Shown here: in pieces, positions 44,521 through 63,319 of the stretch
How positions within the stretch are numbered: the stretch's first letter is position 1
Layout of the letters: each line of letters opens with the position of its first letter
Sequence record: NZ_CP118990.1
DNA: 64,000 nt
Reading direction: 5' to 3' (one strand)
Source: a plasmid
Position numbers and translations under genes: made by a program
Notes under the pieces: model-generated
The model's database searches: none
Told to the model about the DNA's origin: nothing
The model's input: the letters and a program-made list of their open reading frames with translations, nothing else

Positions 44521-44615
44521 TGCTATGTGCCATCTGGCATTTTTAAACCCCACACCGGGGGCGTACTCCCGGTTATCGGGTGTTGCCCCTGTAATACCTT
44601 TCAGGAGTAACACCA

Positions 44616-44977
44616 TGCACATCATCACTTTCATTGCTGTTCTGTTCGTCGCTCTGGGTATGCTTTTCATCGGCGCGAAGGTCTTTGCACTTTCGTTTGT
44701 TGCCCTTGCCAAGCTGTTTCAGCGCGTCGGCTTGTTCCTCTGGAACAAGCTCCCAGTCGCTTCGATTGGTTTGTTCCTCAAGAACAAACTTGTCGAGCCA
44801 GCAATGCGGTCTTTGAAGGCCGTCATAACAAAGAACGTAGCCAAAGCCCGCAAGCCCAAAGCTACTGTTGTGTTTGAACCGCAAGCATTTAATGTTCCGC
44901 GTATTGATTTCGAGCTGGCCTATCCGGATCTCGATGTCCCTGCGTACTTGCGTAAGGGTACCAATATCGTCTGGTAA
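44616..44977 (+). CDS. small membrane protein (120 aa)
   Basis: The true start is ATG 44616 (MHIITFIAVLFVALGMLFIG), preceded by an AACCC GC-hairpin leader and an AGGAG RBS. The ORF call of 44525 is an upstream extension. Confidence 0.5.
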
Positions 44978-45061
44978 CCTCGGTCGTCACTGACTGTTTT
45001 AACCCATCGGGGCAACTCTCCCCGCTGGGGATGTTGCCCCTTTTAACTCCAGGAGCAACAT

Positions 45062-45154
45062 CATGGAAATCGCTATCATCGCTACATGTATCCCTCCCGC
45101 CTGGTTCATCTCTCGCCCGCTGGTGAAGATTGCTGAGTGGTTTGGCTACCGCTG
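45062..45154 (+). CDS. possible 30-aa small hydrophobic protein
   Basis: ATG preceded by an AACCC GC-hairpin leader and an AGGAG RBS. Followed by a strong terminator. Below the size cutoff of the ORF track. Confidence 0.3.
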
Positions 45155-45164
45155 ATAGTTAATA

Positions 45165-45191
45165 CAAAGAGAGAGGGTCACCTCTCTCTTT
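45165..45191 (+). terminator. rho-independent terminator
   Basis: AAAGAGAGAGGGTCACCTCTCTCTTT. Confidence 0.7.
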
Positions 45192-45268
45192 GGTCAAGCC
45201 TCTGTGGCTTGTCTTTAAAGCCCGCTGCATGAGCTGGCTTTGACGACAAGCTACAGGGGGAATGTCGA

Positions 45269-45448
45269 ATGCAACAACACGTATACGACGATAACAAGGG
45301 CGTCATCTACCTTGCCGACGGGCGCGAAGTTAGGTTTGACTCGACACTCTATTCCAGCGCAGAACTGGCGCATAGCGAAGCGGAGAGATGGGCCAAATTA
45401 ACGGGCGTCATCGGCCAGGACGACGATGTGATGATGTTCGTCCATTAA
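45269..45448 (+). CDS. possible 59-aa protein
   Basis: ATG 45269 preceded by AGGGGGA. Encodes MQQHVYDDNKGVIYLADGREVRF... and is followed by a GC hairpin AGGTGGCCTCACAAAGAGGCCACCT. Confidence 0.35.
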   Translation: MQQHVYDDNKGVIYLADGREVRFDSTLYSSAELAHSEAERWAKLTGVIGQDDDVMMFVH

Positions 45449-45517
45449 TAGGTGGCCTCACAAAGAGGCCACCTCTAACTTGAAGCAAGTCTGCTCACTC
45501 ATGGCTCGGTCATCAGT

Positions 45518-45606
45518 CAGTAGATTTTGTTCTCTTCGGAGAGCGAAAAAGTGCGATAGCTGGTCGCCAAAAACAAACAGCAAACGAACGTTTTTTTTCT
45601 AACCCA
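45518..45606 (+). promoter_or_regulatory. R2: repeated promoter-like module (77 bp identical to R3)
   Basis: AGATTTTGTTCTCTTCGGAGAGCGAAAAAGTGCGATAGCTGGTCGCCAAAAACAAACAGCAAACGAACGTTTTTTT. Lies directly upstream of the type-A leader and the cobS-like gene. Confidence 0.6.
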
Positions 45607-45666
45607 TCCGGGTGCATCCTCCCGGTTCGGGAATAGATGCGCCTGCCATTTATAAGGAACGCATCT

Positions 45667-46635
45667 ATGTCTCAATACGCTCAATACTCAGTAAGCAAGG
45701 TCTTCGGTATGCCAAGCATCCCGGAAAAGGTTTTGGCTGTTGGCTATGCCGATACCACTAACCCGTTCATCCCTGCTACTGATCCCAACTACGTTTTCCG
45801 CAAAGAGTTTCTGCGAGAGGTTTTGGCCTTCCTCAAAGAACCTGGCGGTGACGGGTTGTTCACTACGGGCCCTACCGGGTCAGGTAAAACCTCTGGGATC
45901 ACTGAAATCGCGGGTCGTCTGAATTGGCCTGTACAGCAAATCACTGCCCATGGGCGGATGGAGCTGTGCGACCTGATCGGACATCACGCGCTGATTGCAG
46001 CTAACCCCGGTGAACCCCCTGTCATGAAGTTCATGTATGGACCGCTGGCAGTTGCCATGCGTGAAGGTCATATCCTCCTCATCAACGAGGTGGATCTGGC
46101 TGATCCTGCCGAACTGGCTGGTCTCAATGACGTCCTTGAAGGTCGTCCTCTGGTGATCGCTCAGAACGGTGGTGAAATCATCAAGCCGCACCCGATGTTT
46201 CGTGTGGCTGTTACCGGCAACTCTACTGGTTCCGGTGATGCTTCTGGTTTGTACCAGGGCGTGATGATGCAGAATATCGCCTCAATGGATCGCTATCGTT
46301 TCATCAAGGTGGGATATGCCGAAGATATTGCTGAACTCAGCATTCTTGGACGTGTCACTCCCAACCTGCCGGAGAACATCCGAAGTGGAATGGTGCGTAT
46401 CGCCAACCAGGTGCGCAAGCTGTTCCTCGGTGAGAACGGTGAAGATGGTCAGCTCAGCATTACCATGTCCACTCGGACGTTGGTGCGCTGGGCCAAGCTC
46501 TCTCTCGCCTTCCGTGGTGCCCCTAACGCTCTTGAGTACGCCTTGGATCAAGCTCTGCTTATCCGGGCCGCGAAAGAGGAACGTGAAGCTGTCCTGCGCA
46601 TTGCGAAGGATGTGTTTGGCGAACAGTGGCGCTAA
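45667..46635 (+). CDS. CobS-like AAA+ ATPase (MoxR/CbbQ family, s063-like)
   Basis: Walker A GPTGSGKT and Walker B LLINEVD. The true start is ATG 45667 (MSQYAQYSV), preceded by an AAGGAAC RBS. The ORF call begins at 45637. Confidence 0.8.
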   Translation: MSQYAQYSVSKVFGMPSIPEKVLAVGYADTTNPFIPATDPNYVFRKEFLREVLAFLKEPGGDGLFTTGPTGSGKTSGITEIAGRLNWPVQQITAHGRMELCDLIGHHALIAANPGEPPVMKFMYGPLAVAMREGHILLINEVDLADPAELAGLNDVLEGRPLVIAQNGGEIIKPHPMFRVAVTGNSTGSGDASGLYQGVMMQNIASMDRYRFIKVGYAEDIAELSILGRVTPNLPENIRSGMVRIANQVRKLFLGENGEDGQLSITMSTRTLVRWAKLSLAFRGAPNALEYALDQALLIRAAKEEREAVLRIAKDVFGEQWR

Positions 46636-46648
46636 GGGGAGGGCGGAT

Positions 46649-47545: not shown

Positions 47546-47650
47546 CCTTCGGAAGGGAGCTTTTCCCTTCCAAGTTACTTGTAATTAACCCTTCGGGGGC
47601 ACTACTGCCCCGAGGGGCATGGTGTCCCCCAATCACATTGGAGATACACC

Positions 47651-48655
47651 ATGTCTGAAACTAATTCCTTGGTTGTCCGTATGGCTTCCCGCTTCGGAGT
47701 CGATGGCGATAAGTTCTATGCAACGTTGAAAGCAACGGCATTCAAGCAGCGTGATGGCAGTGAGCCGACACATGAGCAGATGCTGGCGCTCATGGTTGTT
47801 GCGGAACAATACAACCTCAACCCCTTTACTCGGGAAATCTATGCGTTTCCTGACAAGCAGAATAAGGGGATTGTTCCGGTTGTTGGCGTTGATGGCTGGA
47901 GCCGTATCATCAATGACCACCCTCAGTATGATGGCGTCGAGTTCGTCTATACGGACAAAATGGTCAAAATGCCGGGGGCAAATGTCGAGTGCCCTGAGTG
48001 GATTGAGTGCGTGATTTACCGTAAGGACAGATCTCGCCCCACCCGCATCAAGGAGTTTCTCGATGAGGTCTATCGTCCGCCGTTTCAGGGGGATGGTGAG
48101 TATGGTGCGTACACAGTTAACGGTCCCTGGCAGACTCACACCAAGCGTCAACTCCGTCATAAAGTGTTGATTCAGTGTGCTCGGGTCGCGTTAGGTTTCT
48201 CTGGTATCTACGACCAGGATGAAGCCGAACGCATTCGCGAGATGGAGCAAGCTACGGCGATCAATCCCGCTGTAGCCAATCTTCCATCACCGGAAACCGT
48301 AAGTCAGATCGTGCCAGAGCCGGTTCAGGAAGTTGTGCTCATTGAGCACAAAGAAATGGACCCCATGCTGACCAAACTCGTTGGCCGCGCCATTAAAGGC
48401 AATGCCTGGTCTGCGGCACACGAGTATGTTGAAGAGCGATACAAAGGTACTCAGTTGGCGTATGCAGTTCACTACCTTCGTGAGAAGCAGATGGACCACA
48501 TGCCCCCCGCTGATGCCGACTACCAGGACATGCAAGGGCCGGTCATTGAACATGATCAGGCAGGTGCAGCACCGGTAGTTCAGGAATCCAATTCCCAACC
48601 ATCAAGTAAAGTGGAGGAGCCTCCCGTGATGGAAGAGGAAGTATGGTACGAGTAA
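47651..48655 (+). CDS. bet: lambda Red-beta (Bet) family single-strand annealing protein
   Basis: Near-identity to lambda Bet segments, for example KEIYAFPDKQNKGIVPVVGVDGWSRIIN, GPWQTHTKRQLRHKVLIQCARVALGF and GIYDQDEAERI. Confidence 0.9.
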   Translation: MSETNSLVVRMASRFGVDGDKFYATLKATAFKQRDGSEPTHEQMLALMVVAEQYNLNPFTREIYAFPDKQNKGIVPVVGVDGWSRIINDHPQYDGVEFVYTDKMVKMPGANVECPEWIECVIYRKDRSRPTRIKEFLDEVYRPPFQGDGEYGAYTVNGPWQTHTKRQLRHKVLIQCARVALGFSGIYDQDEAERIREMEQATAINPAVANLPSPETVSQIVPEPVQEVVLIEHKEMDPMLTKLVGRAIKGNAWSAAHEYVEERYKGTQLAYAVHYLREKQMDHMPPADADYQDMQGPVIEHDQAGAAPVVQESNSQPSSKVEEPPVMEEEVWYE

Positions 48656-48722
48656 TAAACCCCACCGGGGGGCTTCCCCCCTGTTGGGGGGATCTCCCTC
48701 CTAACCACTGGAGAGGTCCGTC

Positions 48723-49733
48723 ATGAAAATAGTCAACCTGTCGCAGCGCGAGGAGGATTGGCTTGCATGGCGGCGTCGAGGCATAACCGCCACCGACGCC
48801 GCTATCTTGCTCAATCGTTCTCCGTACAAAACCCGATGGAGACTGTGGGCCGAGAAGACCGGATATGCGCGAGAAGTCGATCTGAGTCTCAATCCTTTGG
48901 TTCGCCGAGGGGTTGCGAATGAAGATTTGGCAAGGCGAGCTTTCGAGGAGAAGCATGATGACATGCTGCTCCCGGTTTGTGTCGAATCGGTACAATATCC
49001 CCTCATCCGTGCTTCGTTGGATGGATTGAGGGATTGCGGTGAGCCGGTCGAGCTGAAATGCCCGAGCGCGACTGTCTGGCAAGACGTTTGTCTTGAGAAA
49101 GCAAACAGCAACGCATACAGGCTTTACTACCCGCAGGTGCAACATCAGCTCCTGGCTACGGGTGCAAAGCAAGGGTGGCTAGTCTTCTACTTTGAAGGCC
49201 TGATCCTGGAGTTCCCCATACTCCGTGATGAAGCCATGATTCAAGAAATCTTGGCTGAGGCACAGCGGTTCTGGCAGCAGGTGGTGGACAAGAAGGAGCC
49301 CGAAAAAGATCCGGAGAAAGACCTCTTTATACCGCAAGGTAAAGAGGTTAACGCATGGATCGCTGCGGCTGAGGAGTACCGTCTTTATGATGCAGAGGCT
49401 CAGGAGCTGAAACAGCGCTTGGCCGAGTTGCAAGAGAGGCAGAAACCTCACCTCGACACCATGAAGGCCCTCATGGGGCAATACTTCCATGCCGACTACT
49501 GTGGCGTGATGGTGACAAGGTACAAAGCGGCAGGTAGGGTGGACTACAAGAAGCTGTTGGCTGACAAGGCTGCGGGTGTTAAGCCCGAAGACATCGACCA
49601 GTACAGAGAAAACTCATCAGAGCGGTGCCGAGTGACGGTAACTGGCTCGGTGAAACCACGGTACATTGTGGATGATAGGGTCTTGGCCCCTCTCCAAAAT
49701 CTATCGGAAGAAGTAACGTCAAGTTGGTGGTAA
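48723..49733 (+). CDS. exo: lambda-Exo/YqaJ-like 5'-3' exonuclease (alkaline exonuclease family)
   Basis: N-terminus ...RRGITATDAAILLNRSPYKTRWRLWAEK is a YqaJ-type motif. Located immediately downstream of bet. Confidence 0.8.
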   Translation: MKIVNLSQREEDWLAWRRRGITATDAAILLNRSPYKTRWRLWAEKTGYAREVDLSLNPLVRRGVANEDLARRAFEEKHDDMLLPVCVESVQYPLIRASLDGLRDCGEPVELKCPSATVWQDVCLEKANSNAYRLYYPQVQHQLLATGAKQGWLVFYFEGLILEFPILRDEAMIQEILAEAQRFWQQVVDKKEPEKDPEKDLFIPQGKEVNAWIAAAEEYRLYDAEAQELKQRLAELQERQKPHLDTMKALMGQYFHADYCGVMVTRYKAAGRVDYKKLLADKAAGVKPEDIDQYRENSSERCRVTVTGSVKPRYIVDDRVLAPLQNLSEEVTSSWW

Positions 49734-49791: not shown

Positions 49792-49880
49792 AAGCAGATT
49801 TTGTTCTCTTCGGAGAGCGAAAAAGTGCGATAGCTGGTCGCCAAAAACAAACAGCAAACGAACGTTTTTTTCTAGCCCAA
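49792..49880 (+). promoter_or_regulatory. R3: repeated promoter-like module
   Basis: Identical over 77 bp to R2. Followed by a type-A leader (CCGGGCGCATCCGCCCGG ... GGGACGTGATGCGCC). Confidence 0.6.
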
Positions 49881-49937
49881 CCGGGCGCATCCGCCCGGTA
49901 TGGGACGTGATGCGCCTCAAAAATATGGAGTGCATCA

Positions 49938-51130
49938 TGACTAAAGTGAACCACCTGAATCGCCTGTGCATCATTCACGTTGACTTCGACATCTGGAGCG
50001 GCCAGACCCGTTTGACCGCTGCGGACTTGAAGTTGGGAGTGGGCGGAGAAATCCCCCCCGAGAAGATTGCACTGCTCGGTAGTAAAAAAATCTGTGATCC
50101 GGCGAAGCTGAAAGGCTTCCATCGTCTGAAAACAGAAACTCGCCGTCTCCTGCTGAAATTCGGTATGCCGTTCATGAACGGTTTTGCCGTGCCGGTAGAG
50201 AAGGTCGATGAAATTACTGGAAAGCTCGATGATGTGGGCAGCCAGTTCAATGCTCTAAAACAAGACTTCATCAGGGGCTATAACATGGCTGTTGATGAGT
50301 GGTGTCTGGAGAACCCTGAATACGAAGGTGCTCTTCGCGCTGGCGCTCTCCCTAAGGAGACTGTCGAGAAGCGGATTGCCTTCGAATACCAGGCATTCAT
50401 GATCGTGGCCGATAGCGATAAAGGCCATGCAATGAAGCTCAACCGCAAGGTCGAGTGTCTCGGGGATGACCTCATTACCGAAGTTACCCAGGAAGCCAAT
50501 AAGTTCTACATGGAGCGTCTGGCGGGCCGTGATCAATGTGCTCTCACGACACGACAAACACTCCGGAACATCCGCGATAAAGTGGATGGGCTGAGCTTCC
50601 TGAACAGCGCGTTTACCCCACTGGTTAAGCTGCTCGATCAAACCCTCCGGGGTTACGATCAACATGCAGAGGGGCGAAATGTCGTTGCACCTTTCTTCTA
50701 CCAGGTTGTGGCCGCAGTGCTGATCATGAGCGATAAGGGGCGTATCGAACAATACGCCAACGGTTCGCTCACCGTGGAAGGGATGGCCGAGGGTGTGGTT
50801 GGTGCTGAGCTCGTTGCAAGCGCCGATCAGACGCCGCTCCATCAAAGTAATGCACAGCCTGCTGCACCTATTGCTCCCGAAATCGGGAACACCAATGCGC
50901 AAGCTGCTGAGGTGCTGGTTGATGAGGCTGACATCGATGCCTTCTTCAACAACTATGTAGAAAATCATGATGCTGGTGGTCAGAAAGAGGAGAAGACCGA
51001 GGCTGCACCGGTAGTACCGGACGTGGCTAAGGAACCTCTGGAAACCCCAGTGGAAAATGTAGTGGTGAATCAAACTCCCGTAGTTGAGACGCCACCGAAA
51101 GACGACGGCGTAAACGATCTTTACTTCTAA
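49938..51130 (+). CDS. hypothetical 397-aa protein (conserved between exo and cobT-like in this element)
   Basis: The true start is ATG 49937-49939 (MTKVNHLNRL), preceded by an AATATGGAG RBS region and the R3/leader. The ORF track extension from 49724 is rejected. Confidence 0.5.
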
Positions 51131-51211
51131 GCGCCTCGTTCAATAAACCTACCCGGAGGGGATAGCCACCCTCCGGGATGGACTATCTCCTTCTCTACCT
51201 GGAGAAACGAT

Positions 51212-53008
51212 ATGTCCAAGAAAAGAACCATCTATAGCGCCTTGCCTATCGTGGCAGCTGCTTATGGAGAGAAGCTCGGTGTCAAAGTGGCGATCGGTAA
51301 CGATACCGCTTACACCGACGGAAAAACCATCGTGGTACCGAATATCCCTGACGATTATCCGAACATGGATGCCGTCTGGGGGTATTTGGCTCATGAGGCT
51401 GCCCACGTCCGTTTTACGGATTTTGGCGTGCATCGCCGTAAAGGCCTTCATGCTGAGCTGTCCAACATCCTGGAGGACTGCCGCATCGAACGGGCCATGA
51501 TGGATCTCTTCCCCGGTACCGCGCAAACCCTGAACGAAGTGGCTCGTTATATGGCGCAAGCAGGCCATTATGAGCATGTTACGGATGACGAGGCCCCGGC
51601 CTCGATCCTGACAGGGTTTTGCCTCTACTGGTTGCAAACCAAGGCTGTGGGCCAAACAGTCCTGCAACCCTACCTCGATTCGGCAACCACCGTTATCGGG
51701 CGAGTGTTCCCTCAAGGTGTCGTTGTGCGGCTCAACGCTTTGCTGCGTAAAGCCGTGAATACGAAATCCACCGCTGAGGTTATTTCCTTGACCGACGAGA
51801 TCATCAAAATGATTGAGGAGGAGAAGGAGAAAGAAGAGCAAAAATCCCAGAATGGTCAGGGTGATCAAAATCAGCAAAATGCAGGTGGCGAGCAACCTCA
51901 GAACAATCCGGGCGGGAGTGGGCAGGATCAAAATCAAAGCGCAGGTGGCAATGGTGGCGATCAGCAAGGCAAAGACCAGAAGCAAGAAGGGGCTGGTGGT
52001 CAGTCTGATCCGAAAGGACAAGGCGACCAAGGCTCATCGAATGCCGATGGGAGCACTCAGGCAGGACAGCAATCTGCTGGTGGTGATAATGGCACGTCCA
52101 AACAGGACGCGGCCAAGTTGCTCCAACAGGTTCTTAATGCCGGTGCAGGTGATTTGCGTGGTGACGCGCATGATGCACTGAAAGCTGAGCTCAACCAGGT
52201 GGCACAGGAGCAGGGCAACAGCAGCTATACGACTGTTCGCACTGCCAGTGACACTCACAACAACCCCATCGCAGGTAAAAGCCTGATTGGGAATGTAAAG
52301 AGCACCACGGCCAAGATCAGAACGCAGCTCTACGGCCTGGTACAAGCCAGCCAGCGAGTTGCTCATCGCACTCAGCGTTCAGGGAAGCGTGTTGACGCAC
52401 GGAAGCTACATCGCGTAGTTACCGGCGACACCCGCGTCTTCCTCAAACCGGAAGACAAGAAACGCCCGAACACGGCGGTTCACATCCTAGTTGATATGAG
52501 CTCGTCTATGTCCTATCGGGCAGCCAATGGGAAGGAGCGTCAGGACATCGCACGGGAAGCATCCCTCGCCATTGCTATGGCGCTGGAGGCGATCCCCGGA
52601 GTGAATCCGGCCGTTACCTTCTTTGGTGGCGACGATAATCAACCGGTGTTCAGTGCTGTGAAACATGGAGAGACTGTTCAGAATCGGGCCGGTCGGTTCG
52701 GGTTCAAAGCGAGAGGTAATACCCCGATGGCGGAAGCCATTTGGTATGCTGCCTTTGAACTCACTAAGACCCGTGAAGAACGAAAGATGTTGATCGTAGT
52801 GACAGATGGGGCACCTCAAAATGCCCCGGCCTGTAGCTCTGTCATCAACCTCTGTGAACGCAGTGATGTTGAAGTAATCGGCATTGGAGTTGAGACCAAC
52901 GCGGTAACAAGACTGTTCCCAACGAACATTGTCATTGATGACGCGGCGGCTCTCCAGCGCACGTTGTTCAAGTTGCTTGAGCGGTCCCTGACCTCTTTCG
53001 CGGCTTGA
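51212..53008 (+). CDS. CobT-like von Willebrand factor A (VWA) domain protein with low-complexity Q/N/G-rich linker
   Basis: The C-terminal VWA/MIDAS region is DMSSSM...GGDDNQP...TDGAP. There is a central QNQ/GG-rich low-complexity stretch. It is the partner of the cobS-like AAA ATPase. Confidence 0.7.
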   Translation: MSKKRTIYSALPIVAAAYGEKLGVKVAIGNDTAYTDGKTIVVPNIPDDYPNMDAVWGYLAHEAAHVRFTDFGVHRRKGLHAELSNILEDCRIERAMMDLFPGTAQTLNEVARYMAQAGHYEHVTDDEAPASILTGFCLYWLQTKAVGQTVLQPYLDSATTVIGRVFPQGVVVRLNALLRKAVNTKSTAEVISLTDEIIKMIEEEKEKEEQKSQNGQGDQNQQNAGGEQPQNNPGGSGQDQNQSAGGNGGDQQGKDQKQEGAGGQSDPKGQGDQGSSNADGSTQAGQQSAGGDNGTSKQDAAKLLQQVLNAGAGDLRGDAHDALKAELNQVAQEQGNSSYTTVRTASDTHNNPIAGKSLIGNVKSTTAKIRTQLYGLVQASQRVAHRTQRSGKRVDARKLHRVVTGDTRVFLKPEDKKRPNTAVHILVDMSSSMSYRAANGKERQDIAREASLAIAMALEAIPGVNPAVTFFGGDDNQPVFSAVKHGETVQNRAGRFGFKARGNTPMAEAIWYAAFELTKTREERKMLIVVTDGAPQNAPACSSVINLCERSDVEVIGIGVETNAVTRLFPTNIVIDDAAALQRTLFKLLERSLTSFAA

Positions 53009-54933: not shown

Positions 54934-55428
54934 ATGAACAACCTATCCACCTTGGAAACGATGATCACCCGTGACAGTGCGGCTCTTCGCTTTGTCGAAC
55001 AGCTCGATAAGAACGAACTGAGCTCTCTATCCGGGGAGATTTTTGCCAAGTTCTACTGGTACAAACGTAATCCCCAGTGGTTCAAAAAAGATACCAACCG
55101 ACAATTCGCTCGGCTTCGTTGGATCTGGCGCATCATCAAGAAACGCCTGAGTACCGGGCGGGCCAAGCCTGAATTGACTGTGCATGGTTCCGAGATGGAG
55201 CGCTTCAAACACCTCGGTGGAGATGCCTGGATGTTTTTCCGACATCACCTCGGAACCGGTTGGGAGATCGCTTTCGTGCCATCTCCTTACAGTGGTTTTT
55301 GGGTAAACGTGCATGAGCTACAGCTCTGTACCTACTGCGAAGGTGATGTGGTCATGATGAGGTCTCCTGATGAAGGATCCTTCGAACGTGATTACGGTCG
55401 TCTGTGCCAGTGGTACGAGGACAATTAA
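54934..55428 (+). CDS. hypothetical 164-aa protein
   Basis: Leader plus a TAAGGAG RBS. Confidence 0.45.
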   Translation: MNNLSTLETMITRDSAALRFVEQLDKNELSSLSGEIFAKFYWYKRNPQWFKKDTNRQFARLRWIWRIIKKRLSTGRAKPELTVHGSEMERFKHLGGDAWMFFRHHLGTGWEIAFVPSPYSGFWVNVHELQLCTYCEGDVVMMRSPDEGSFERDYGRLCQWYEDN

Positions 55429-55494
55429 TCCCTAACCAGGGGCGAACATGCCCCTGACGGGGGCAGGTGCGCCCCATCCAAAATGGAGGACACC

Positions 55495-56379
55495 ATGTTC
55501 AAATCGTCAGTATGCTCCTATGAAAATCGGGGGCCTTATGGAAACAACAAGTATCGCGGCAACTGCACGGGTCACATCGTAAAAGACTTTATCGAGTCTT
55601 ACATGAGAAAGCCCGAAGGCCTGGTTGCAGACCCCAGTATCGGGGGAGGATCCAGTGTCGATGTCGCCAACGAACTTGGTGTTCGTTTCAAAGGCACAGA
55701 CCTGCACCAGGGGTTCAATCTGTTGCGGGACGACTTCCGGGCGTTTCTCGGAGAGCCTGCCCATCTAATCTGGTGGCATCCACCTTACTGGGACATGATC
55801 CAATATTCCGGTGAGCAGTGGGGAGAGCCACATAAGTGGGATATGAGTCGAATGACCTTACCTGCCTTTGTGGAAGCGCTGGAGCTCGCAATCATGAATA
55901 TTCATGATGCTTGCGAACCGGGCGGCCACTACGGGATCTTGATGGGCAATCTGAGGCGGGAAGGGGACTACTACAACCTGTCCAGTCTCGTTGAGCGTCT
56001 GGCTCCTGGGAAGCTGGTGGATGAGATCATCAAGACGCAGCACAACTGTGTCAGTGATCGCACCCAGTATGCCGGGAAGCTAGTCCGTATCTCACATGAA
56101 AAGCTCCTCGTGTTTCGTCGTAGTGATTCCACTACATCGCTTCGTCTTCTTCCTGCTGTTGACCGTAGAGCCACCAAATCGGTTGCGACTACCTGGAGTG
56201 CAGCGATAAGGCGTGTGATGCAGGGAAAGACGTTAACGCTAGAGCAGATTTATCAAGAGATGGAGGCTTATGCGAAACACTTTGATAGTCAGTATTGGCG
56301 TGAAAATGTCAGGCAAATTATCGAAGACAGTAAGTTTTTTGTTCAACGCGAGGCCGGTGTCTATGCACTTGCTGAGTAG
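55495..56379 (+). CDS. putative orphan DNA methyltransferase (amino-MTase type, N6-adenine or N4-cytosine)
   Basis: Motif I-like ADPSIGGGSS and motif IV WWHPPYW (a (D/N/S/H)PPY variant). No adjacent endonuclease. The start is ATG 55495 after GGAGGACACC. The ORF call begins at 55483. Confidence 0.5.
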   Translation: MFKSSVCSYENRGPYGNNKYRGNCTGHIVKDFIESYMRKPEGLVADPSIGGGSSVDVANELGVRFKGTDLHQGFNLLRDDFRAFLGEPAHLIWWHPPYWDMIQYSGEQWGEPHKWDMSRMTLPAFVEALELAIMNIHDACEPGGHYGILMGNLRREGDYYNLSSLVERLAPGKLVDEIIKTQHNCVSDRTQYAGKLVRISHEKLLVFRRSDSTTSLRLLPAVDRRATKSVATTWSAAIRRVMQGKTLTLEQIYQEMEAYAKHFDSQYWRENVRQIIEDSKFFVQREAGVYALAE

Positions 56380-56437
56380 CCCTTCCGTGGCGTGACTTCC
56401 CGGATGGGCTGGTCACGTTCTCTTAACCCTAAGGAAC

Positions 56438-56668
56438 ATGACCATGAATATTGAGCTCCGTGCCAGCAGTGATGTGCTGTTGGTTCAGATCGAACGCAAG
56501 GGCCTTACTGTCGAAACACATTGTCGCAGTGGCTTTTGTGGCATGTGTAGGACTCGTCTCGTCAAAGGCCAAGTCGCCTATGAAGAGATGCCGATAGCAT
56601 TTGTGAACGAAGGGGAAGTATTGGTTTGTTGCGCTAAAGCAAAGACTGACGTGACCCTTGAAATTTAA
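56438..56668 (+). CDS. YfaE-like [2Fe-2S] ferredoxin
   Basis: THCRSGFCGMCRTRLVKGQVAY...PIAFVNEGEVLVCCAKAKTDVTLEI closely parallels E. coli YfaE (YQCREGYCGSCRTRLVAGQVDW...PLAFIQPGEILPCCCRAKGDIEIEM). Four conserved Cys ligands. Confidence 0.7.
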   Translation: MTMNIELRASSDVLLVQIERKGLTVETHCRSGFCGMCRTRLVKGQVAYEEMPIAFVNEGEVLVCCAKAKTDVTLEI

Positions 56669-56728
56669 CCCACCCGGAGGGGCCAACCCCCGAGGGGTGA
56701 GGTTCCTCTGAAATATGAGGAAAAGAAT

Positions 56729-57133
56729 ATGTCCACCAAAACTCAACTGGAACAGATCGCCTACAACCACGCTGCCGCGATGATGCTCAGTGATCTGGGA
56801 ACGCATGAAAATGGCTATTCAGCCTATCTGTATTTGTGCGAGCTGGCTGAAAAAAGTGAAGATTCCAACGAACAGCTACCCGACGATATTTCTGCTTGGG
56901 GGCCCTTCGAAAATTGGAATTTGCTCGATGTTCTGAATCAGATCGACTGTGAGGCCGAAGCGCTGCTTCCCACGCTGGAGACTGTTCTGACATTCGCTCA
57001 CAAAGGCATTGTGCAATCTGCTATTGATTGCACCCTGGATTCGGACATGAACCTGCTTGATCTGAAAGATATGGTCGAAAAGGGGAGTGAGCTCGAACAG
57101 GCGGAGACTGTTGGAGGTGTGTATGCAGCTTAA
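56729..57133 (+). CDS. hypothetical acidic 134-aa protein
   Basis: Leader plus a GAGGAAAAG RBS. Highly acidic composition. Confidence 0.4.
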   Translation: MSTKTQLEQIAYNHAAAMMLSDLGTHENGYSAYLYLCELAEKSEDSNEQLPDDISAWGPFENWNLLDVLNQIDCEAEALLPTLETVLTFAHKGIVQSAIDCTLDSDMNLLDLKDMVEKGSELEQAETVGGVYAA

Positions 57134-57575: not shown

Positions 57576-57675
57576 GCCAATGGCCGTGATCACCGAGTTG
57601 TTGCTCATGAACTGTTAACCCACGGCGCCACTCGCCCTGATGGGGGAGGGTCCTCTGTTCACAATGGAGAAGACC

Positions 57676-57867
57676 ATGACAGAACACAGTCAACTGATAG
57701 TGTTTCCAGGGAACAATTCTGAGTCGGTTGCAGAGGCCAGGGCCATGCTGAGCGCGGTGTCGAAAGATGCCAGCCGAGCAAGCAATCCGGAGCATAAACG
57801 TGACCTTGAATCGCTTTACGACTGGCTGGAGGAGAATATCAATTCTCGTCTGGTGGGCGCGAAGTAA
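57676..57867 (+). CDS. hypothetical 63-aa protein
   Basis: TGGAGAAGACCATG start context is shared with bet (TGGAGATACACCATG) and the MTase (TGGAGGACACCATG). Confidence 0.4.
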   Translation: MTEHSQLIVFPGNNSESVAEARAMLSAVSKDASRASNPEHKRDLESLYDWLEENINSRLVGAK

Positions 57868-57934
57868 CGATGACTCTAACCCTACCGGGGCACTGTGCCC
57901 TGTTGGGGACATGGTGCCCGTCTAAGGAGCTACC

Positions 57935-58288
57935 ATGAGTGCAGTGAAACTGATCCAGAATGTAAACCAGCTTGAGCTACAACTTTTCTTTCTGGAAGAG
58001 ATGCCTAAAACCGCAGAAATTATCCCGTTAGAGCCGAAGCTTGAATGGACTGATGATGAGGTTTGGCAATTACGAGACGGACTGCTCTGGCATAGCCTGA
58101 GAGTCCTGGCCGATGGTCGAGCTGGAGTGGAGATCAAACGGGAGACGATGGGGTGGATGATGTCAGATGACATCCATCCGTTCTCGTTCGTCGTCTGTTG
58201 CGCTCAAGCGGGCTATGACCCATCTGGTATTAGGGAAGGCGTTGAGTCTATCCTAAACCGCCTTGCGCGGGTTAAAGTGGGGGGGTAA
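57935..58288 (+). CDS. hypothetical 117-aa protein
   Basis: Leader plus a TAAGGAG RBS. Confidence 0.45.
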   Translation: MSAVKLIQNVNQLELQLFFLEEMPKTAEIIPLEPKLEWTDDEVWQLRDGLLWHSLRVLADGRAGVEIKRETMGWMMSDDIHPFSFVVCCAQAGYDPSGIREGVESILNRLARVKVGG

Positions 58289-58412: not shown

Positions 58413-58517
58413 TATAGCCTATCCTGACCGGCATCTCCGGTCAGACCATCAAAAACCCATTGGGACGTACACTCCCTTTCGGGTCGTGCGTCCTTCTTTA
58501 CCCCTAAGGAGTACGCC

Positions 58518-58847
58518 ATGAATGTAAATATCAAAACCCTGGTTCTTGAGGCGATCAAAGAAACACTTCGCGTGGCTCAACGCCAAACTCAGAAGCAGCG
58601 GCCAATCGACAACCTCGATGCCGAGTCTATTTGCCACCGCTTCCTCACTGAAAAGGAGGATGCGCTCACCCATGGTACCGATAGCTATGGCTACTGGTTG
58701 ACCGCCTTCATCGAAAGCGATGCTGGTCTGGATGAGGCTGTCGAACTTGATGAAGTAGTTGCCAAGTTGAAGGATGGATTCACTTCCGGCTTCGGCTCTT
58801 GTGAATCAGGGCAGTATTGTTTTGATGTTCACGAGCAGGCTCATTAG
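58518..58847 (+). CDS. hypothetical acidic 109-aa protein
   Basis: Type-A leader plus a TAAGGAG RBS. Confidence 0.45.
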   Translation: MNVNIKTLVLEAIKETLRVAQRQTQKQRPIDNLDAESICHRFLTEKEDALTHGTDSYGYWLTAFIESDAGLDEAVELDEVVAKLKDGFTSGFGSCESGQYCFDVHEQAH

Positions 58848-58917
58848 AAATCCAACCCAATCAGGGCGCATACCCTGCTGGGATACTGCGTCCTATTCTT
58901 GATAGGAGTGCACGACC

Positions 58918-59187
58918 ATGGCATACGCAAGTTTGCTACCAGATCAACGGTTCAATGAGATCTACGACTTGCTGAACCAACGAGTGGCTGCGGCCGCCAA
59001 CGCTGCGTATAACGCGAAGCTGGCGAAAGCGAAAACCCGTAAGCAGCGTGAGTCCTGTGCAGGGCACTACCCAAGCGACTGGTCAGTTCTATTTGGCCTG
59101 TGGTGTCGGGACAAAGTGACGAACTTGCATGTGCTTGACTGCCTGCGATTGGGTCATGTCTACAGCGGCCAGGATCTGGCTAGTTAG
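58918..59187 (+). CDS. hypothetical 89-aa protein
   Basis: Type-A leader plus a TAGGAG RBS. Confidence 0.4.
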   Translation: MAYASLLPDQRFNEIYDLLNQRVAAAANAAYNAKLAKAKTRKQRESCAGHYPSDWSVLFGLWCRDKVTNLHVLDCLRLGHVYSGQDLAS

Positions 59188-59272
59188 ACTGTCCGTAATC
59201 AACTCAATTAACGCCAACCGGCGCATCCGCCCGGTTGGGACGTGATGCGCTCACAATTTACTTGGAGAGCAT

Positions 59273-59579
59273 CATGGAAAAATTACACCTCAAAGACGGG
59301 TACAGCATTTATTTTGCCGATGTCTATTTTGACGACGTGATCTATTCGATGGGTACCGGGCTGGGGTTCACCGACGTGATTTACGGCTATTCATTAGGCC
59401 GCGATCAACAGGAAGCCGAACAGCTGGTGACCGAGAAGTACAATGGAAAAGTTTCTGCAAAGCCCAACGGTGACGAGGTGCGGGTGAAGAAGGTCTATCT
59501 GCGACTCGCTCGCAGTCAGGACATCAACCGCTACACCTTCCCCGAGAACATGGCTGGGTACTCCCACGCCATTCAGTAA
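59273..59579 (+). CDS. hypothetical 102-aa protein
   Basis: Type-A leader plus a TGGAGAG RBS. The ATG 59273 start (MEKLHLK) is preferred over the ORF track start of 59235. Confidence 0.4.
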
Positions 59580-59675
59580 TGCAGATCGCTTTGTACTGAC
59601 AACACACAAACCCAATTGGGGGCCACCACCCCCCGCTTGGGCCGGTAGTGGCCTCTCTTGCTAAAGGAGAAGGCT

Positions 59676-59972
59676 ATGTCCGGAATGAAATACATGAACA
59701 GCTGTGTGAATTGGCCGCAACATGATGTCAGCGCCGAAGGCGGATTGTCAGACATGGTGGATCTGTCCAGAGATGTCTCACGCAGTACCTTTTTGAAGCA
59801 TGTAGACCAGGCAGACCTCCACGAGTTGGAGGCTTGTTTAGGTTACTCACGCTCACCCAGGCAGGGTATGACCATGGCGGACGATTACCACGTCAGCTAC
59901 CACCGGTCGAAACTGCATGGTGACACCGTGTATTACTTGAAGCACTCAGCTATTGAGTACGTTTTCGCGTGA
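59676..59972 (+). CDS. hypothetical 98-aa protein
   Basis: An AAAGGAGAAGG RBS before ATG 59676. The ORF track start of 59658 is rejected. Confidence 0.4.
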   Translation: MSGMKYMNSCVNWPQHDVSAEGGLSDMVDLSRDVSRSTFLKHVDQADLHELEACLGYSRSPRQGMTMADDYHVSYHRSKLHGDTVYYLKHSAIEYVFA

Positions 59973-60055
59973 TACAACAAACACATTAACCCACTCGGGG
60001 CCACACCTCCCGACTGGGGCGGTAGTGGCTCTCCCGACACCAAGGAGATACAAAT

Positions 60056-61680
60056 ATGGCTACTATCGTTAACACCAAATTAGGGGAACATCGGGGCAAA
60101 CCGCGTGTGTGGCTGGAAGGCTACAAGCTGTTGCGTGAAGGCTACTCGCCTGGCACTAAGTTCGATCTGGAGTTGAGAGACTCTCAAATCGTTCTTCGGG
60201 TCAAGGAAGAGGGCAAGTTCACGGTCAGCAAGCGGGAGCGTAATGGCCGTGTCACCCCCATCATCGATTTGAACGCGCAGGAGCTCGCTACCGTCTTTGA
60301 CGGGGTTGAGATGCTCCGGGTGTTCATTCGTCAAGGCGCGATTCTGATCTCTGCTCATCATCAACATGAGCGAGTCGTTGAGCGTGTCAACCGCCTCACC
60401 AGCAAACTGGAGAAGGGAGAGCCTCTTTCGGTATGCAGCCTCTTCCATGGGGGCGGTGTGCTGGATAAAGCGATCCACGCGGGGTTTAAGAGATCGGGTA
60501 TCGCAAGCTCTATCGCGGTTGCTGTCGAGATGGAAGGGTCATATCTTGACTCGTCCCTCGCCAACAACCCTGAGCTGTGGGATGAAAACTCGATAGCTAT
60601 TGAGTCACCCATCCAGGCCGTGAACCTGAGCAGGAATCCCACGCAATGTGAGATCGTGATCGGCGGGATCCCCTGCACTGGAGCTTCTAAGAGTGGTCGT
60701 AGTAAGAACAAACTGGAATATGCCGAATCCCACCAGGATGCCGGAGCACTGTTCTTCAACTTCCTTGAGTTTGTCAAAGCTCTCAATCCAGCAATGGTTC
60801 TGATTGAGAACGTTCCCGAGTACCAGAAAACCGCCAGTATGGAGGTGATCCGGTCTGTGCTCTCCTCGCTAGGATACTTCGTGCAGGAACGCATACTCGA
60901 CGGTAATGAGTTCGGTGTCATTGAATGTCGCAAGCGTCTTTGCGTCGTTGCGCTTTCCCACGGGATTGATGGGTTTGACCTTGAACAGGTTCAGCCAGTC
61001 CGTACCAAAGAAAGCTGCATCAAAGACATTCTTGAGCCTGTCCCACTCGATTCTCAACGTTGGAAGTCATTCGACTATCTGGCGGATAAAGAATTGAGGG
61101 ACAAGCCGCAGGTAAGGGATTCGCACGTCAGCTCCTGACAGGTGATGAAGCTTTCTGCGGCACGGTAGGCAAGGGGTACTCAAAGTGTCGCTCAACCGAG
61201 CCGTTCATTGTTCATCCGGAGCAGAGTGAGCTATCCAGGCTCTTCACCCCAGCCGAACATTGTCGGATCAAGGGGATACCCGAGGAGCTGATTGATGGCC
61301 TGTCGGACACGACTGCTCACGAGATCCTCGGGCAGTCGGTTGCTTATCCTGCGTTCGAGGCCTTGGCCTCATCGCTTGGTAACAGCCTCTGGAGCTGGAG
61401 AGGTATGAAGCCACTCATAGTTGAGCTGGTGGATGATTCTCAGCCGACTATCGGTGGAGGAGACTTCCATTGGGCAACTGCTCTGGTTGACCTGAAAGGT
61501 ACCCTCACGCTATCGCCGACGGCGAAAAAGCTGGGGATGCCTATCCACGTTCGGGACGGCCAACTGGCCGTTTACTCCCGCACTGGTTCGAAGACAAGCC
61601 ACGGCCATGCGCCATGTGAGTATCTCCCGGTCATGCAGTCCGGAGATGCGATCATGGTTCAGTCGTCGCTTGTCCATTAG
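60056..61680 (+). pseudogene. DNA cytosine-5 methyltransferase (Dcm-like) split by a frameshift near 61090-61138
   Basis: Frame A (60056-61138) carries motif I-like LFHGGGVLD, the PC motif GGIPCTGAS and the ENV motif LIENVPE. Frame B (61090-61680) carries motif IX/X-like SRLFTPAEHCRIKGIPEEL and GQSVAYPAFEALA. The two frames overlap by about 48 nt. Confidence 0.6.
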
Positions 61681-61740
61681 CAACTCACCGGGGTAATGCC
61701 GAAAGGCAATTACCCCGGCCTATCCGAAAAGGAGTGAGTC

Positions 61741-62172
61741 ATGAAAATCGAAATGGTTGTGCCCCTACCTGTAGAGGATTCGGGGCTTCAACACAGCATT
61801 GCCAGGTTCCATAATTTTAACATGGACTCAAAGAGGCAAGATAAAGCCAGGTTCTTCCGCAGGGAACCGGTTGTCATCGTAAACCCCGAGACCAAAGCGA
61901 AGGTGTTGCGGTATGCGATGGGTAACCCTGGTGGGCTTTCTATCACCAAGGGAGCGATAGCGTTGGATTACGATGCGGTCGATGCGCTTGGTGTCCGGTT
62001 CAAAGGCGCTGTAGAGCTTGAGGTTCGCAGGGCTAAGCGCTGGGAAGTATGGCAATGGTTCTGGAACCATCGGGATCAGAGCGTTCAGCTGTCAATCAAG
62101 ATGGGCGTAGTCGGTACAGTTCTGGGAGTCCTTGGCTTCCTGACTGGGCTTGCACCGTACCTTCTTGGGTAA
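61741..62172 (+). CDS. hypothetical 143-aa protein with C-terminal TM segment
   Basis: An AAAGGAG RBS before ATG 61741. Confidence 0.45.
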   Translation: MKIEMVVPLPVEDSGLQHSIARFHNFNMDSKRQDKARFFRREPVVIVNPETKAKVLRYAMGNPGGLSITKGAIALDYDAVDALGVRFKGAVELEVRRAKRWEVWQWFWNHRDQSVQLSIKMGVVGTVLGVLGFLTGLAPYLLG

Positions 62173-62245
62173 TTCAAAAAAACCTTATCGGGCAAAGTAG
62201 GCCCGGTACGGGGCTTGCTTTGCTCTCCCTTCAAGGAGAACAGAC

Positions 62246-62644
62246 ATGGCATATCAAGCAACACTCGCGCCTCTTTCTAAAGAAGAGCTGCTGACAATCC
62301 CTTGCTACCGGTACATCAACTTGGAAGTGCAGGAAGCGGATCTCGAACAATGGGATCAGTGGTTCATGCAGTACCGGCGCAAGCCTCATGTCTACAGCAC
62401 CAAGCGCCAGGGATGCAGCACCTTTCGTGCAGAAATCCAGGGTGACTACGTGAATGTTGACTGGCGGGTTTACCGGACCTGGTGTAACACCTTCCATCTT
62501 CGGTACGCACCGTTGCTTAACGAGCTCGGCGTGAAGGTAACAAACCCTCACATCGGTTCGGAAACACAGTTTCTGGTCGCGAAGCTGATGGACAATGGTT
62601 GGCGCCCCAAAGCGCTGGCCGATTGTACTGTCGGAACCAACTAG
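62246..62644 (+). CDS. hypothetical 132-aa protein
   Basis: An AAGGAGAACAGAC RBS before ATG 62246. Confidence 0.45.
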   Translation: MAYQATLAPLSKEELLTIPCYRYINLEVQEADLEQWDQWFMQYRRKPHVYSTKRQGCSTFRAEIQGDYVNVDWRVYRTWCNTFHLRYAPLLNELGVKVTNPHIGSETQFLVAKLMDNGWRPKALADCTVGTN

Positions 62645-62721
62645 CCAGATCTCAATACAAACCCAGAGGGGAACATGCCCCTTTGGGCCATGTTCCCTCC
62701 CCATCATGAAGGAAGAGAACA

Positions 62722-63089
62722 TGGGATTACCCGATTCGTATACCCTGACGGAAACGCTGGATAAGCTGCGTTATGTGCTGACAGAGACCCGCAGAACCGG
62801 CGCCCTTGAGTTGTTGGATAAAGCCGTAAGCAAGTCTCGCGAAGACGACGCTTATGCCAAGCAACTGGAAGTGGCGTTGCTGCGCGGTTCAACGTTGGAG
62901 TGCCGGGAGTTGTTCGCGGTGTTTGGTGATTACATCGCCCCACCAAGAGAGACTTTCCCCCCGTATCCACATATGGATGCAGTCAACGGGATAGACTCTG
63001 GCATGTTGGCGGTGAAACTCGAAGGTCAGACGCCAGGTGCAATGCAAGAGAGCATCGATTTCGTCAAGCTGATGAGAGGTATCGCCTGA
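62722..63089 (+). CDS. hypothetical 122-aa protein
   Basis: The start is ATG 62722 after an attenuator-like leader and a GAAGGAAGAG RBS. The ORF track start of 62595 is rejected. Confidence 0.45.
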
Positions 63090-63120
63090 GCCAATCCGGC
63101 TCAGTCATTTGTCTTAAAGG

Positions 63121-63262
63121 GCAGGGGGAAACCCCTGCTTTCACCACAGTCTACTTACCCATGGCCGCGCCATCGGTAAGCAGATTTTGTTCTCCCTGGA
63201 GAGCGAAAACGTGCGATAGCTGGTCGCCAAAAACAAACAGCAAACTATCAATTTTTTTATTA
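63121..63262 (+). promoter_or_regulatory. R6: terminator hairpin (GCAGGGGGAAACCCCTGCTTTC) plus promoter-like module
   Basis: ...AGCAGATTTTGTTCTCCCTGGAGAGCGAAAACGTGCGATAGCTGGTCGCCAAAAACAAACAGCAAAC. About 90% identical to R2/R3. Confidence 0.6.
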
Positions 63263-63319
63263 ACCCACTGGGGGAACGTGCCCCTGATGGGGCCGTTCCT
63301 TCTCCTACCGGAGAAGAAC

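Follow-up and report, generated by a model that had tools for sequence, protein, structure and literature searches.

A family of 24 GC-rich, structured leaders was found in a plasmid sequence (record NZ_CP118990.1) of which 64,000 nt were analysed, a stretch called here the window. All of them lie on the + strand between 44.5 and 63.4 kb, within one long operon, and each ends at the start codon of the gene that follows. The finding is confirmed as real and the reading of these elements as sense-strand mRNA leaders is supported. Two mutually exclusive folds are predicted for the leader: in fold A, the Shine-Dalgarno (SD) sequence and the spacer behind it are paired, and in fold B, a long upstream hairpin takes the place of this pairing and leaves SD and AUG single-stranded. 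The leaders are probably cis-acting translational gates of the following cistron, off by default and with two states, a reading to which a probability of roughly two in three is assigned. The family is classed with the translational attenuator leaders, here equipped with an alternative fold that counteracts sequestration, and its unusual trait is that of a modular cassette used about 25 times over in one mRNA.

The leader family and the predicted fold hiding the ribosome-binding site

The original prediction listed 22 such elements, and all of them proved to be real, since the pattern is present at every position, each time with an SD and an ATG directly 3′ that open an open reading frame (ORF) of 30-598 aa. 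A covariance model built from these 22 copies (hairpin I, described below, plus sequence) re-found them at E = 7e-14 to 6e-6 and added two further members, at 62173-62251 (E = 4.5e-4) and at 56371-56449 (E = 0.03), with no match in positions 1-44,500 of the window and nothing real on the - strand. A generic two-hairpin detector had been too permissive, giving 41 + strand and 12 - strand matches, many of them intragenic, and was replaced by the covariance model. When Rfam 15 was searched, no match was obtained at gathering thresholds over the whole window and none even at E<=1 over 44300-64000, so no known family was matched.

The search of related elements that had been proposed was also productive, with leaders found in IncC, pAQU-like and further loci. 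In an IncC plasmid, 26 copies were found in the 98 kb searched, all in one operon of ~29 kb and on the operon strand, and none among the tra genes or resistance islands of that sequence. As for the 24 of 24 copies of the window, the model matches in six divergent loci lie without exception on the operon strand (67/67). Leaders occupy orthologous positions in a pAQU-like Vibrio plasmid and were also found in Edwardsiella, Shewanella, Vibrio, Alcanivorax, Paraglaciecola, Comamonas, Marinobacterium and Marinomonas loci, whose VWA protein is 55-86% identical. The distant syntenic MOBH plasmid of Citrobacter, NZ_CP056823.1 (VWA ~31% identical), is without such leaders. In its syntenic operon at 3500-16800 (ssb, recT, exo, MoxR ATPase, DUF3150, VWA), the genes are spaced by ~60 nt, much like those of the window, but the gaps hold AT-rich unstructured cassettes with a near-identical end (...TTTAAWTNNATGAGGTATANNATG), often after a terminator-like hairpin; these cassettes are a different repeated solution at the same operon positions. 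The family-wide counts given below refer to 131 copies pooled across replicons, and the stop-codon distances to 127.

From 5′ to 3′, a leader consists of an A/U-rich, G-poor flank (G at most 9% over 10 nt), a 5′ CCC, a G-run (a), a variable segment (X), a C-run (b), a second G-run (c), a second variable segment (X′), a C-rich anti-SD segment (d), an A/U-rich loop, the SD, and X″, which comprises the spacer plus the AUG; the cassette measures ~60 nt. In the leader of bet (+ strand), these parts are the CCC clamp at 47589-47591, a (GGGGG) at 47595-47599, X at 47600-47607, b (CCCC) at 47608-47611, c (GGGG) at 47614-47617, X′ (CATGGTGT) at 47618-47625, d (CCCCC) at 47626-47630, the A/U-rich loop at 47631-47639, the SD (GGAG) at 47640-47643 and X″ (ACACCATG) at 47646-47653. 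Fold A is the calculated minimum free energy (MFE) structure and has the same form in nearly all copies. Its hairpin I is made of an outer stem CCC:c and an inner stem a:b, ~11 bp in total, with X in the loop, and 0-3 nt further on hairpin II pairs X′d with SD-X″, again over ~11 bp; in the computed fold of the bet leader, it is the stretch from GGAG through ACACCATG that is paired. The AACCC motif, by which the elements had been noticed, is an arm of a stem that pairs with the second G-run and not a free signal. The hexamer TAACCC by itself is not enriched window-wide (28 occurrences versus 20.9 expected), and only in combination with the structure does the motif constitute a signal. The runs of G and C may be understood as a chain set by the SD, in which GGAG dictates d (CCUC/CCCC), d dictates a (GGGG), and b (CCCC), c (GGGG) and the 5′ CCC follow in turn; therefore, the conservation of the runs would be explained without a trans-acting reader.

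The leaders, taken as 78-nt segments, fold with a mean of -32.0 kcal/mol and z = -3.7 against dinucleotide shuffles, a score that is inflated for the copies from outside the window, which were picked by the covariance model via hairpin I. The window copies give -31.5 kcal/mol and z = -3.6, whereas 46 other upstream regions of coding sequences of the IncC plasmid, used as a control, give -17.7 kcal/mol and z = -0.6. Across the family, positions -11 to -1 are paired with a probability of 0.65-0.87, SD and spacer with one of 0.7-0.87, and positions -20 to -13, the loop of hairpin II, are open and composed of 73% A+U and only 5% G.

The predicted second fold and its conservation

Fold B is built from the pairings a:d, X:X′ and, at the tip, b:c, which results in one long hairpin with the 5′ CCC, the SD and the AUG single-stranded. 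It had been proposed that mutually exclusive pairings involve the ribosome-binding site (RBS) and start codon. This part was borne out, since SD and spacer are paired, both pairings are copy-specific and covariation is seen among orthologues. The proposed 1:2 / 2:3 / 3:4 topology was not, as the exclusion is between the set 5′CCC:c, a:b, X′d:SD-X″ and the set a:d, X:X′, b:c. When the RBS region (-13 to +13) was forced open, fold B was the best remaining structure in 17 of the 24 window copies. The calculated cost of this opening is 10.6 kcal/mol for the leaders versus 9.4 kcal/mol for ordinary genes, near to ordinary despite the very stable ground state, because fold B compensates for the lost pairing.

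The complementarity on which fold B depends is specific to each copy. In the window, the aX:X′d pairing has a mean of -11.7 kcal/mol within a copy and -7.4 kcal/mol when segments are crossed between copies (permutation p<=1e-4), and the same was verified in six other replicons; overall, the own-versus-cross permutation tests for aX:X′d and for X′d:SD-X″ are significant in seven replicons (p 1e-4 to 1.3e-3). Since both pairings are copy-specific, X is therefore a copy of X″ and both compete for X′, and the copy-specific aX:X′d complementarity implies that fold B is no accident of the G and C runs.

Compensatory substitutions had been claimed from the leaders at 62656 and 63263, a comparison of paralogues, which does not amount to strict compensation, and whose first pair was placed at 62661-62686; GGAACATG is in fact found at 62670-62677 and CATGTTCC at 62689-62696. 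Covariation among the 22 paralogues was rejected as evidence, given that RNAalifold on a MAFFT alignment yielded 3 pairs and a majority-vote fold recovered hairpin I alone; it was left unused because hairpin II falls out of register owing to the variable loops. Real compensatory changes are supplied by orthologues, in which fold B is kept via two-sided substitutions in sequences from IncC, pAQU-like plasmids and eight other genomes. In the leader of the CbbQ/AAA_5 ATPase gene, compared across 11 orthologues, X, X′ and X″ vary jointly, a three-way covariation in which the triplet reads GTGCATC/GATGCGC/CGCATC in the window, GCGCATC/GGTGCGC/GCGCACC in IncC and GTACACC/GGTGTAC/GTACACC in Edwardsiella.

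Pairs were counted in orthologue alignments built from sequence alone, with 500 shuffles as the control. In the DUF3150 leader set (alignment A2, n=9 sequences), fold B is paired in 92.4% of cells, compared with 81.6% in shuffles and at most 61.5% in slid registers, a level reached by 0/500 shuffles, and 7 of its 15 pairs show two-sided changes; fold A is paired in 80.4% of cells (shuffles 74.0%; 0/500), with 8/25 two-sided pairs, and hairpin II in 87.7%. In the VWA leader set (alignment A3), 85.6% of the cells of fold B are paired and 8/17 pairs are two-sided, with 0/500 shuffles reaching the proportion of paired cells and 1/500 reaching the covariation score or the number of pairs. In some columns, covariation is seen with either alternative partner, as for column 38 of A2, with column 22 according to fold A and with column 42 according to fold B, and RNAalifold run on orthologue sets tends towards fold B. 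The family thus shows the features of a two-state (bistable) translational leader class, with fold A not significant in one orthologue alignment.

A probable two-state translational gate and its alternatives

According to the preferred reading, fold A would be the OFF state, in which hairpin II hides SD, spacer and, in about half of the copies, the AUG, and fold B would be the ON state, in which the long upstream hairpin leaves SD and AUG free and stabilises or sets the translatable state. The full leader is 8.2 kcal/mol more stable in fold A than in fold B, whereas in the prefix still lacking the SD the lowest energy belongs to fold B in 98/131 copies. Taken cistron by cistron, the calculated energy gap separating the folds ranges from 6.7 to 19.5 kcal/mol. 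Direct-path barriers were estimated at ~12-13 kcal/mol for the passage from B to A and at ~20 kcal/mol for that from A to B, and the passage from nascent hairpin I to fold B also costs ~20 kcal/mol. Hairpin I is transcribed first and would also form first, with the leader settling in fold A; given the ~20 kcal/mol barrier, the leader would therefore be OFF by default and an active opening event would be needed, which agrees with the reported strong attenuation of SXT bet and the predicted RBS sequestration of vcrx089. The leader could be flipped through the unwinding of hairpin I by a ribosome or a helicase, through loss of the CCC clamp upon 5′ processing, or by a factor acting in trans, and the X/X′/X″ sequences may tune the output of each cistron. 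Two other routes to the open state were considered. A transient ON window with fold B first on the nascent RNA is not supported, on account of the ~20 kcal/mol barrier from the formed hairpin I, an estimate that covers nested-structure kinetics only. Transcripts starting at the CCC clamp, which would leave promoter-proximal leaders constitutively open, were rejected, since the AcaCD box lies at 44400-44427 and the start site known from pVCR94 would fall ~150 nt before the ATG.

Several observations weigh against this gate. Folds A and B are here computed predictions, and by computation fold B is inseparable from an H-type pseudoknot (a:b plus X:X′) save for the covarying b:c pairs. The AUG is paired with a probability of only ~0.47, in about half of the copies, and an RBS-opening cost barely above that of ordinary genes could mean weak attenuation, unless kinetics are the deciding factor. 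In the VWA alignment, fold A did not reach significance (76.3% paired, 4/23 two-sided pairs, reached by 61/500 shuffles), a null result that probably stems from loop indels breaking up the alignment, and the z-scores of the copies from other replicons are inflated. Regarding the trigger, no SD-preceded ATG of an upstream ORF, as a leader peptide would require, was found in any copy (0/131) over the interval that begins 30 nt before hairpin I and extends to its loop, no RNA-binding or helicase domain was found in a Pfam scan of 29 operon proteins, and the gap separating stop codon and hairpin I spans from below 0 to above 100 nt.

One alternative is an element acting in DNA, given that fold B is an imperfect palindrome of ~40 nt and the host element is conjugative, with a single strand entering the recipient as single-stranded DNA (ssDNA). 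The palindromes could then act during conjugation as priming/ssi sites or ssDNA promoters, or represent REP/MITE- or attC-like repeats, and the strand bias by itself fits RNA and ssDNA alike. However, the 3′ arm of the leader is always SD, spacer and start codon of a gene, and action in ssDNA would leave this link to the RBS unexplained; moreover, -35/-10 hexamers are absent, X differs between copies so that there is no one common sequence, and the copies are confined to a single operon in a single orientation. The same features (one strand, one operon, start-codon ends and copy-specific X) set the family apart from REP/BIME/ERIC repeats, and the possibility raised at the outset, that of a REP/ERIC repeat without a link to start codons, falls with them. 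Nor is the family attC-like, as the RYYYAAC and GTTRRRY core sites of attC elements are missing, the ends are CCC and SD-ATG, and IncC, pAQU-like and Aeromonas plasmids all keep the gene order, without cassette shuffling; the annotation of the syntenic operon regions contains no integrase, and the class 1 integron integrase intI1 of IncC lies in the resistance region, ~5 kb past the distal end of the operon. Additionally, the sense strand folds better than its complement (-32.3 versus -30.0 kcal/mol; 91/131 copies, p = 5e-7), and the pairs comprise 1827 GC, 858 AU and 273 GU, compared with 38 A-C single mismatches. Strand exclusivity, the RBS-bound 3′ arm, sense stability and the G-U excess point to action at the mRNA level, and a DNA-level element is very improbable. 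Of similarly low standing, and largely refuted, is the view of the leaders as transcription attenuators, with fold B as an intrinsic terminator and hairpin I as its antiterminator. It draws on the preference of the prefix for fold B and on a few copies with T-runs after it, such as IncC vcrx087 with T8; however, in only 21/131 copies do the 8 nt that follow the stem of fold B contain at least 5 T (mean 2.6), so the hairpin with an immediate U-tract that defines an intrinsic terminator is generally lacking, a terminator scan was only marginally above background, with 26 matches versus 19.3 in shuffles (standard deviation 4.1), few of them on fold B, and in IncC reverse transcription PCR placed vcrx087, vcrx089 and bet on a single transcript reaching vcrx094 (PMC7498323). 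The antitermination role suggested originally is without support, as is transcription attenuation.

Two further explanations were weighed. In the first, the leaders would punctuate the message, keeping long gaps structured and blocking Rho loading and RNase E entry, with the RBS cover as a side effect that fold B compensates; in a variant, hairpin I would be a protective 5′ end, or fold B a protective 3′ end, after cleavage in the A/U-rich flank or loop. The ~30 kb length of the operon, its gaps of 60-95 nt, the A/U-rich and G-poor composition of flank and loop, a structure that persists in both states and the near-ordinary opening cost are all consistent with it. Yet a stabiliser needs no copy-specific complementarity to spacer and start codon, which is highly significant here, a second covarying partner for the same arm would be superfluous, and the sole experimentally tested member is reported to attenuate translation (PMC4542580). 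Punctuation is compatible with a translational gate rather than exclusive of it, and as the explanation in its own right, in either form, it is considered unlikely. In the second, translation would be relayed from cistron to cistron, with a terminating ribosome melting the CCC clamp and part of hairpin I, so that b:c nucleates and the leader passes from fold A to fold B, which would make translation of the downstream cistron conditional on that of the upstream one. The ~20 kcal/mol barrier from A to B does call for an active unwinder, leaderless genes abut or overlap the upstream gene so that direct coupling is possible there, and the stop codon often lies 0-12 nt before the CCC (IncC gaps are typically 61-78 nt). 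The original prediction had placed a stop codon immediately before TAACCC as a rule; this holds for the close stops, at <=7 nt in 37/127 copies and <=12 nt in 49/127, but fails for the 65/127 in which the stop is >20 nt away, 19/127 of them exceeding 100 nt. These distances are too variable for coupling to a terminating upstream ribosome to be the general trigger, which was rejected as such, and in addition the leader of the first gene sits in a 5′ untranslated region (UTR) without upstream ORF, some leaders come after terminator-like hairpins, and a ribosome on segment a would also block a:d. A relay is accordingly judged quite improbable, and the two-state gate is the reading retained.

A separate set of boxes accompanies the leaders. 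The sequence GATAGCTGGTC[G/T]CC[A/C]AAAACAAACAGCA occurs in six + strand copies (44490-44517, 45555-45582, 49829-49856, 54183-54210, 58385-58412 and 63215-63242; 0 expected), five of which sit 20-45 nt upstream of a leader and the first ~58 nt upstream, and a AGATTTTGYTCTC...GAGAG hairpin precedes 5/6. The exact 11-mer GATAGCTGGTC is multicopy, and always on the operon strand, in 13/17 related loci, with 4-6 copies in most related elements. These six copies are distinct from the AcaCD box at 44400-44427, and the GATAGCTGG...AAACAGCA box is not the AcaCD box. The segment GCGATAGCTGG matches the ops/RfaH signal, GGCGGTAGCGTG, at 8/12 positions, and these ops-like boxes may be antitermination or coupling signals. 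It is conceivable, though decidedly unlikely, that the ~24-26 leaders of a replicon constitute a post-transcriptional regulon flipped jointly by one signal of conjugative entry or of a modified transcription complex. In that case, the ops-like boxes would load an RfaH/NusG-type factor on RNA polymerase and a tethered ribosome would reach the SD before hairpin II closes, or else the outcome would be reached through a plasmid RNA or protein that binds the 5′ CCC clamp where it is exposed. If true, host-defence-evasion proteins would be made only from properly licensed transcripts.

The resemblance to translational attenuators or switches noted at the outset is reinforced by published remarks on two members. 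In SXT, a strong translational attenuator was described upstream of bet, also present in IncA/C plasmids (PMC4542580, summarising Garriss 2013), and in IncC a structure sequestering the RBS of vcrx089 was predicted (PMC7498323). Both belong to the same operon, genes and position as the leaders described here, their counterparts being the bet leader at 47579-47656, directly before the RecT-family gene in an operon of the AcaCD type and with an RBS occluded by its predicted hairpin II, and the ATPase leader at 45593-45672. As described, both hinder translation; however, they were reported as single leaders, whereas here ~24-26 copies with a shared modular design and an alternative fold extend over the operon, and in the literature no description of an operon-wide leader family or of a second fold was found beyond these two isolated remarks. 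To the original prediction, the analysis adds a corrected topology, a second fold that is conserved, the joint variation of X, X′ and X″, the confinement of the family to a single operon and a single clade of elements, and the link between the two remarks (SXT bet, IncC vcrx089) and the leader family. A likeness is also seen to the rpsO (S15) operator of E. coli, where two adjacent hairpins lie upstream of and over the RBS, the first loop is complementary to a downstream segment, and one leader is in equilibrium between a double hairpin and a pseudoknot (PMC3985624). That operator, however, is a single copy read by S15 in which the pseudoknot is the repressed, ribosome-entrapping form (PMC3985624), unlike the ~25 leaders of differing sequence, whose alternative fold frees the RBS.

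The ermC/cat attenuation leaders are likewise multi-segment, with a last pairing that hides SD and AUG and an alternative middle pairing that releases them, but there a ribosome stalled on a leader peptide flips the fold, and the 2:3 topology differs from the nested one of the window leaders (a:d enclosing b:c). In the maturation gene of phage MS2, the hok mRNA (tac/fbi) and the IS10 transposase, the RBS is paired with an upstream complement and alternative or metastable folds decide translation. These are single loci with long-range pairings, unlike the compact, reusable cassette repeated through the operon, whose barriers, by simple estimates, do not favour a transient ON nascent state. GC-rich hairpins between most genes of a polycistronic mRNA are also known from REP/BIME elements and from the RNase III sites of T7. 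REP copies share one common sequence, occur in both orientations genome-wide and do not include the RBS, and the sites of T7 early genes are ~20 bp stems cut by RNase III, whereas the window stems measure ~11 bp each, are copy-specific and always include the SD. RNA thermometers of the ROSE or fourU type, in which a U-rich or UUGCU motif holds the SD in weak, heat-labile pairs, do not match either, as the anti-SD arm is C-rich (CCUC/CCCC), the stems are dominated by G-C pairs and the MFE is ~-32 kcal/mol.

The operon, its leaders and their significance

The 44.5-64 kb part of the window is a run of co-directional + strand genes with 93% identity to the Aeromonas plasmids pS44-1 and pAsa4 and ~81% to IncC plasmids. 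It is syntenic with the IncC stretch downstream of traN and acaB, and the leader operon with the IncC ssb-bet-exo region. After a small first gene, it encodes a CbbQ/AAA_5 ATPase, bet (RecT family), exo (YqaJ family), DUF3150, VWA/CobT-like and DUF3085 proteins, an N6 methylase, a yfaE-like ferredoxin, a C5 methylase and many small ORFs; the DNA methylases are orphans. In IncC, the first part of the syntenic region is the host-defence-evasion (hde) operon (PMC7498323), which is driven by the AcaCD-dependent promoter Pvcrx087 (PMC4207636 Table S3; PMC7498323). Thanks to its genes for the AAA ATPase, vcrx090, ssb, bet and exo, both IncC plasmids and SXT/R391 elements withstand restriction as well as cleavage by CRISPR systems on entry into a new host (PMC7498323). 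The leader-bearing transcript is that of the hde operon plus downstream genes of an IncA/C-SXT-type conjugative element. The sequence AGTTGCCCAAAATGGACACCTACAGCG at 44400-44427 (+) is a perfect AcaCD-type box, matching published AcaCD-binding sequences (PMC4207636 Table 1). Because it is the sole good match within the operon region (a weaker overlapping pair lies at 32076-32104), the operon promoter is likely located there; with the transcription start 34-36 nt after the AcaCD motif, as in pVCR94, the 5′UTR would measure ~150 nt up to the ATG of the first gene.

Unless stated otherwise, each of the following + strand leaders combines a match to the covariance model with the predicted folds. 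The first, that of the vcrx087-like gene (44539..44620, ATG 44615; E=4.3e-9), shows both folds, has orthologues and lies in the 5′UTR downstream of the AcaCD-type box, and it is followed by the leader of a 30-aa ORF (44993..45068, ATG 45063; E=7.1e-13), in which fold B is the MFE structure and which is kept in IncC and Shewanella. Next come the leader of the vcrx089-like ATPase gene, also called cobS-like (45593..45672, ATG 45667), with the covariation already described; that of bet (47579..47656, ATG 47651), which gives the best model match (E=7.2e-14), shows folds A and B and precedes a gene with a RecT domain; that of exo (48651..48728, ATG 48723), with two-sided changes in 5/12 pairs among orthologues; and those of the DUF3150 gene (49866..49942, ATG 49937) and the VWA/CobT-like gene (51138..51217, ATG 51212), to which alignments A2 and A3 refer. 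The leader of a 66-aa ORF (53043..53119, ATG 53114) is preceded by a terminator-like hairpin at 53020-53041. Genes assigned by a domain match follow the leaders of the DUF3085 gene (53377..53453, ATG 53448), the N6/N4 DNA methylase gene (55421..55500, ATG 55495) and the C-5 cytosine DNA methylase gene (59980..60061, ATG 60056). Orthologues are available for the leaders of the 179-aa ORF (54212..54286, ATG 54281) and the 164-aa ORF (54863..54939, ATG 54934), and an orthologue comparison for that of the 117-aa ORF (57870..57940, ATG 57935). The two added members belong to the yfaE-like 2Fe-2S ferredoxin gene (56371..56449, ATG 56444; two-hairpin fold, Fer2 domain) and to a 132-aa ORF (62173..62251, ATG 62246). 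The remaining leaders precede ORFs of 134 aa (56659..56734, ATG 56729), 63 aa (57609..57681, ATG 57676), 109 aa (58446..58523, ATG 58518), 89 aa (58846..58923, ATG 58918), 101 aa (59202..59279, ATG 59274), 98 aa (59601..59681, ATG 59676) and 122 aa (62652..62726, ATG 62721), and an ORF beginning at 63321 that extends past the end of the window (63254..63326).

Among the + strand genes without such a leader, those at 46646, 53943 and 57123 abut or overlap the upstream gene, and those at 45272 and 61741 are preceded by different structures. The leader of the latter (61680-61743, +) is a family variant missed by the covariance model, with a long hairpin CCGGGGTAATGCC...GGCAATTACCCCGG enclosed in a long-range pairing ACTCAC : GTGAGT, the second arm just before the ATG, and this type is kept in IncC (~23930-23997 of the searched sequence). 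At ~45190-45270 (+), before the small ORF starting at ~45270, a different long hairpin of ~-45 kcal/mol over ~60 nt has a 3′ arm that reaches into the SD (GGGGGA), and its IncC counterpart (~7960-8035) folds to -43 kcal/mol. Intrinsic-terminator-like hairpins with T-runs lie between stop codon and next leader at 53020-53041, ~53340-53375 and ~49745-49770 (+), and the operon may be punctuated by partial terminators. The first operon protein (44615-44977, +) has 120 aa, no Pfam match, a hydrophobic N-terminus and a C-terminal end ...DLDVPAYLRKGTNIVW. This end resembles the conserved C-terminal peptide of FtsZ (DIPAFLRKQ), and cell-division proteins may be among the partners of the protein. For the C-5 cytosine methylase, the ORF (60056-61138, +) encodes 360 aa, compared with 541 aa (1626 nt) in IncC and pS44-1, and a TTG ORF at 61363-61680 (+) may be its displaced 3′ part, in which case the gene would be frameshifted or a pseudogene. 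Outside the operon, positions 8000-20000 have a G+C content of 0.35-0.47, versus 0.50-0.63 elsewhere in the window, which suggests an inserted or accessory region.

The translation control of hde genes bears on the establishment of major multidrug-resistance vectors. If the two-state design works as proposed, it would account for the poor expression of bet and exo despite their strong transcription, and would point to a de-attenuation step that could be targeted. It would also represent a natural compact RBS gate that avoids cross-pairing and is reused ~25 times in one mRNA, and, if true, the three-way covariation and the SD-dictated chain of runs would be useful for RNA design and for the study of how alternative folds co-evolve.

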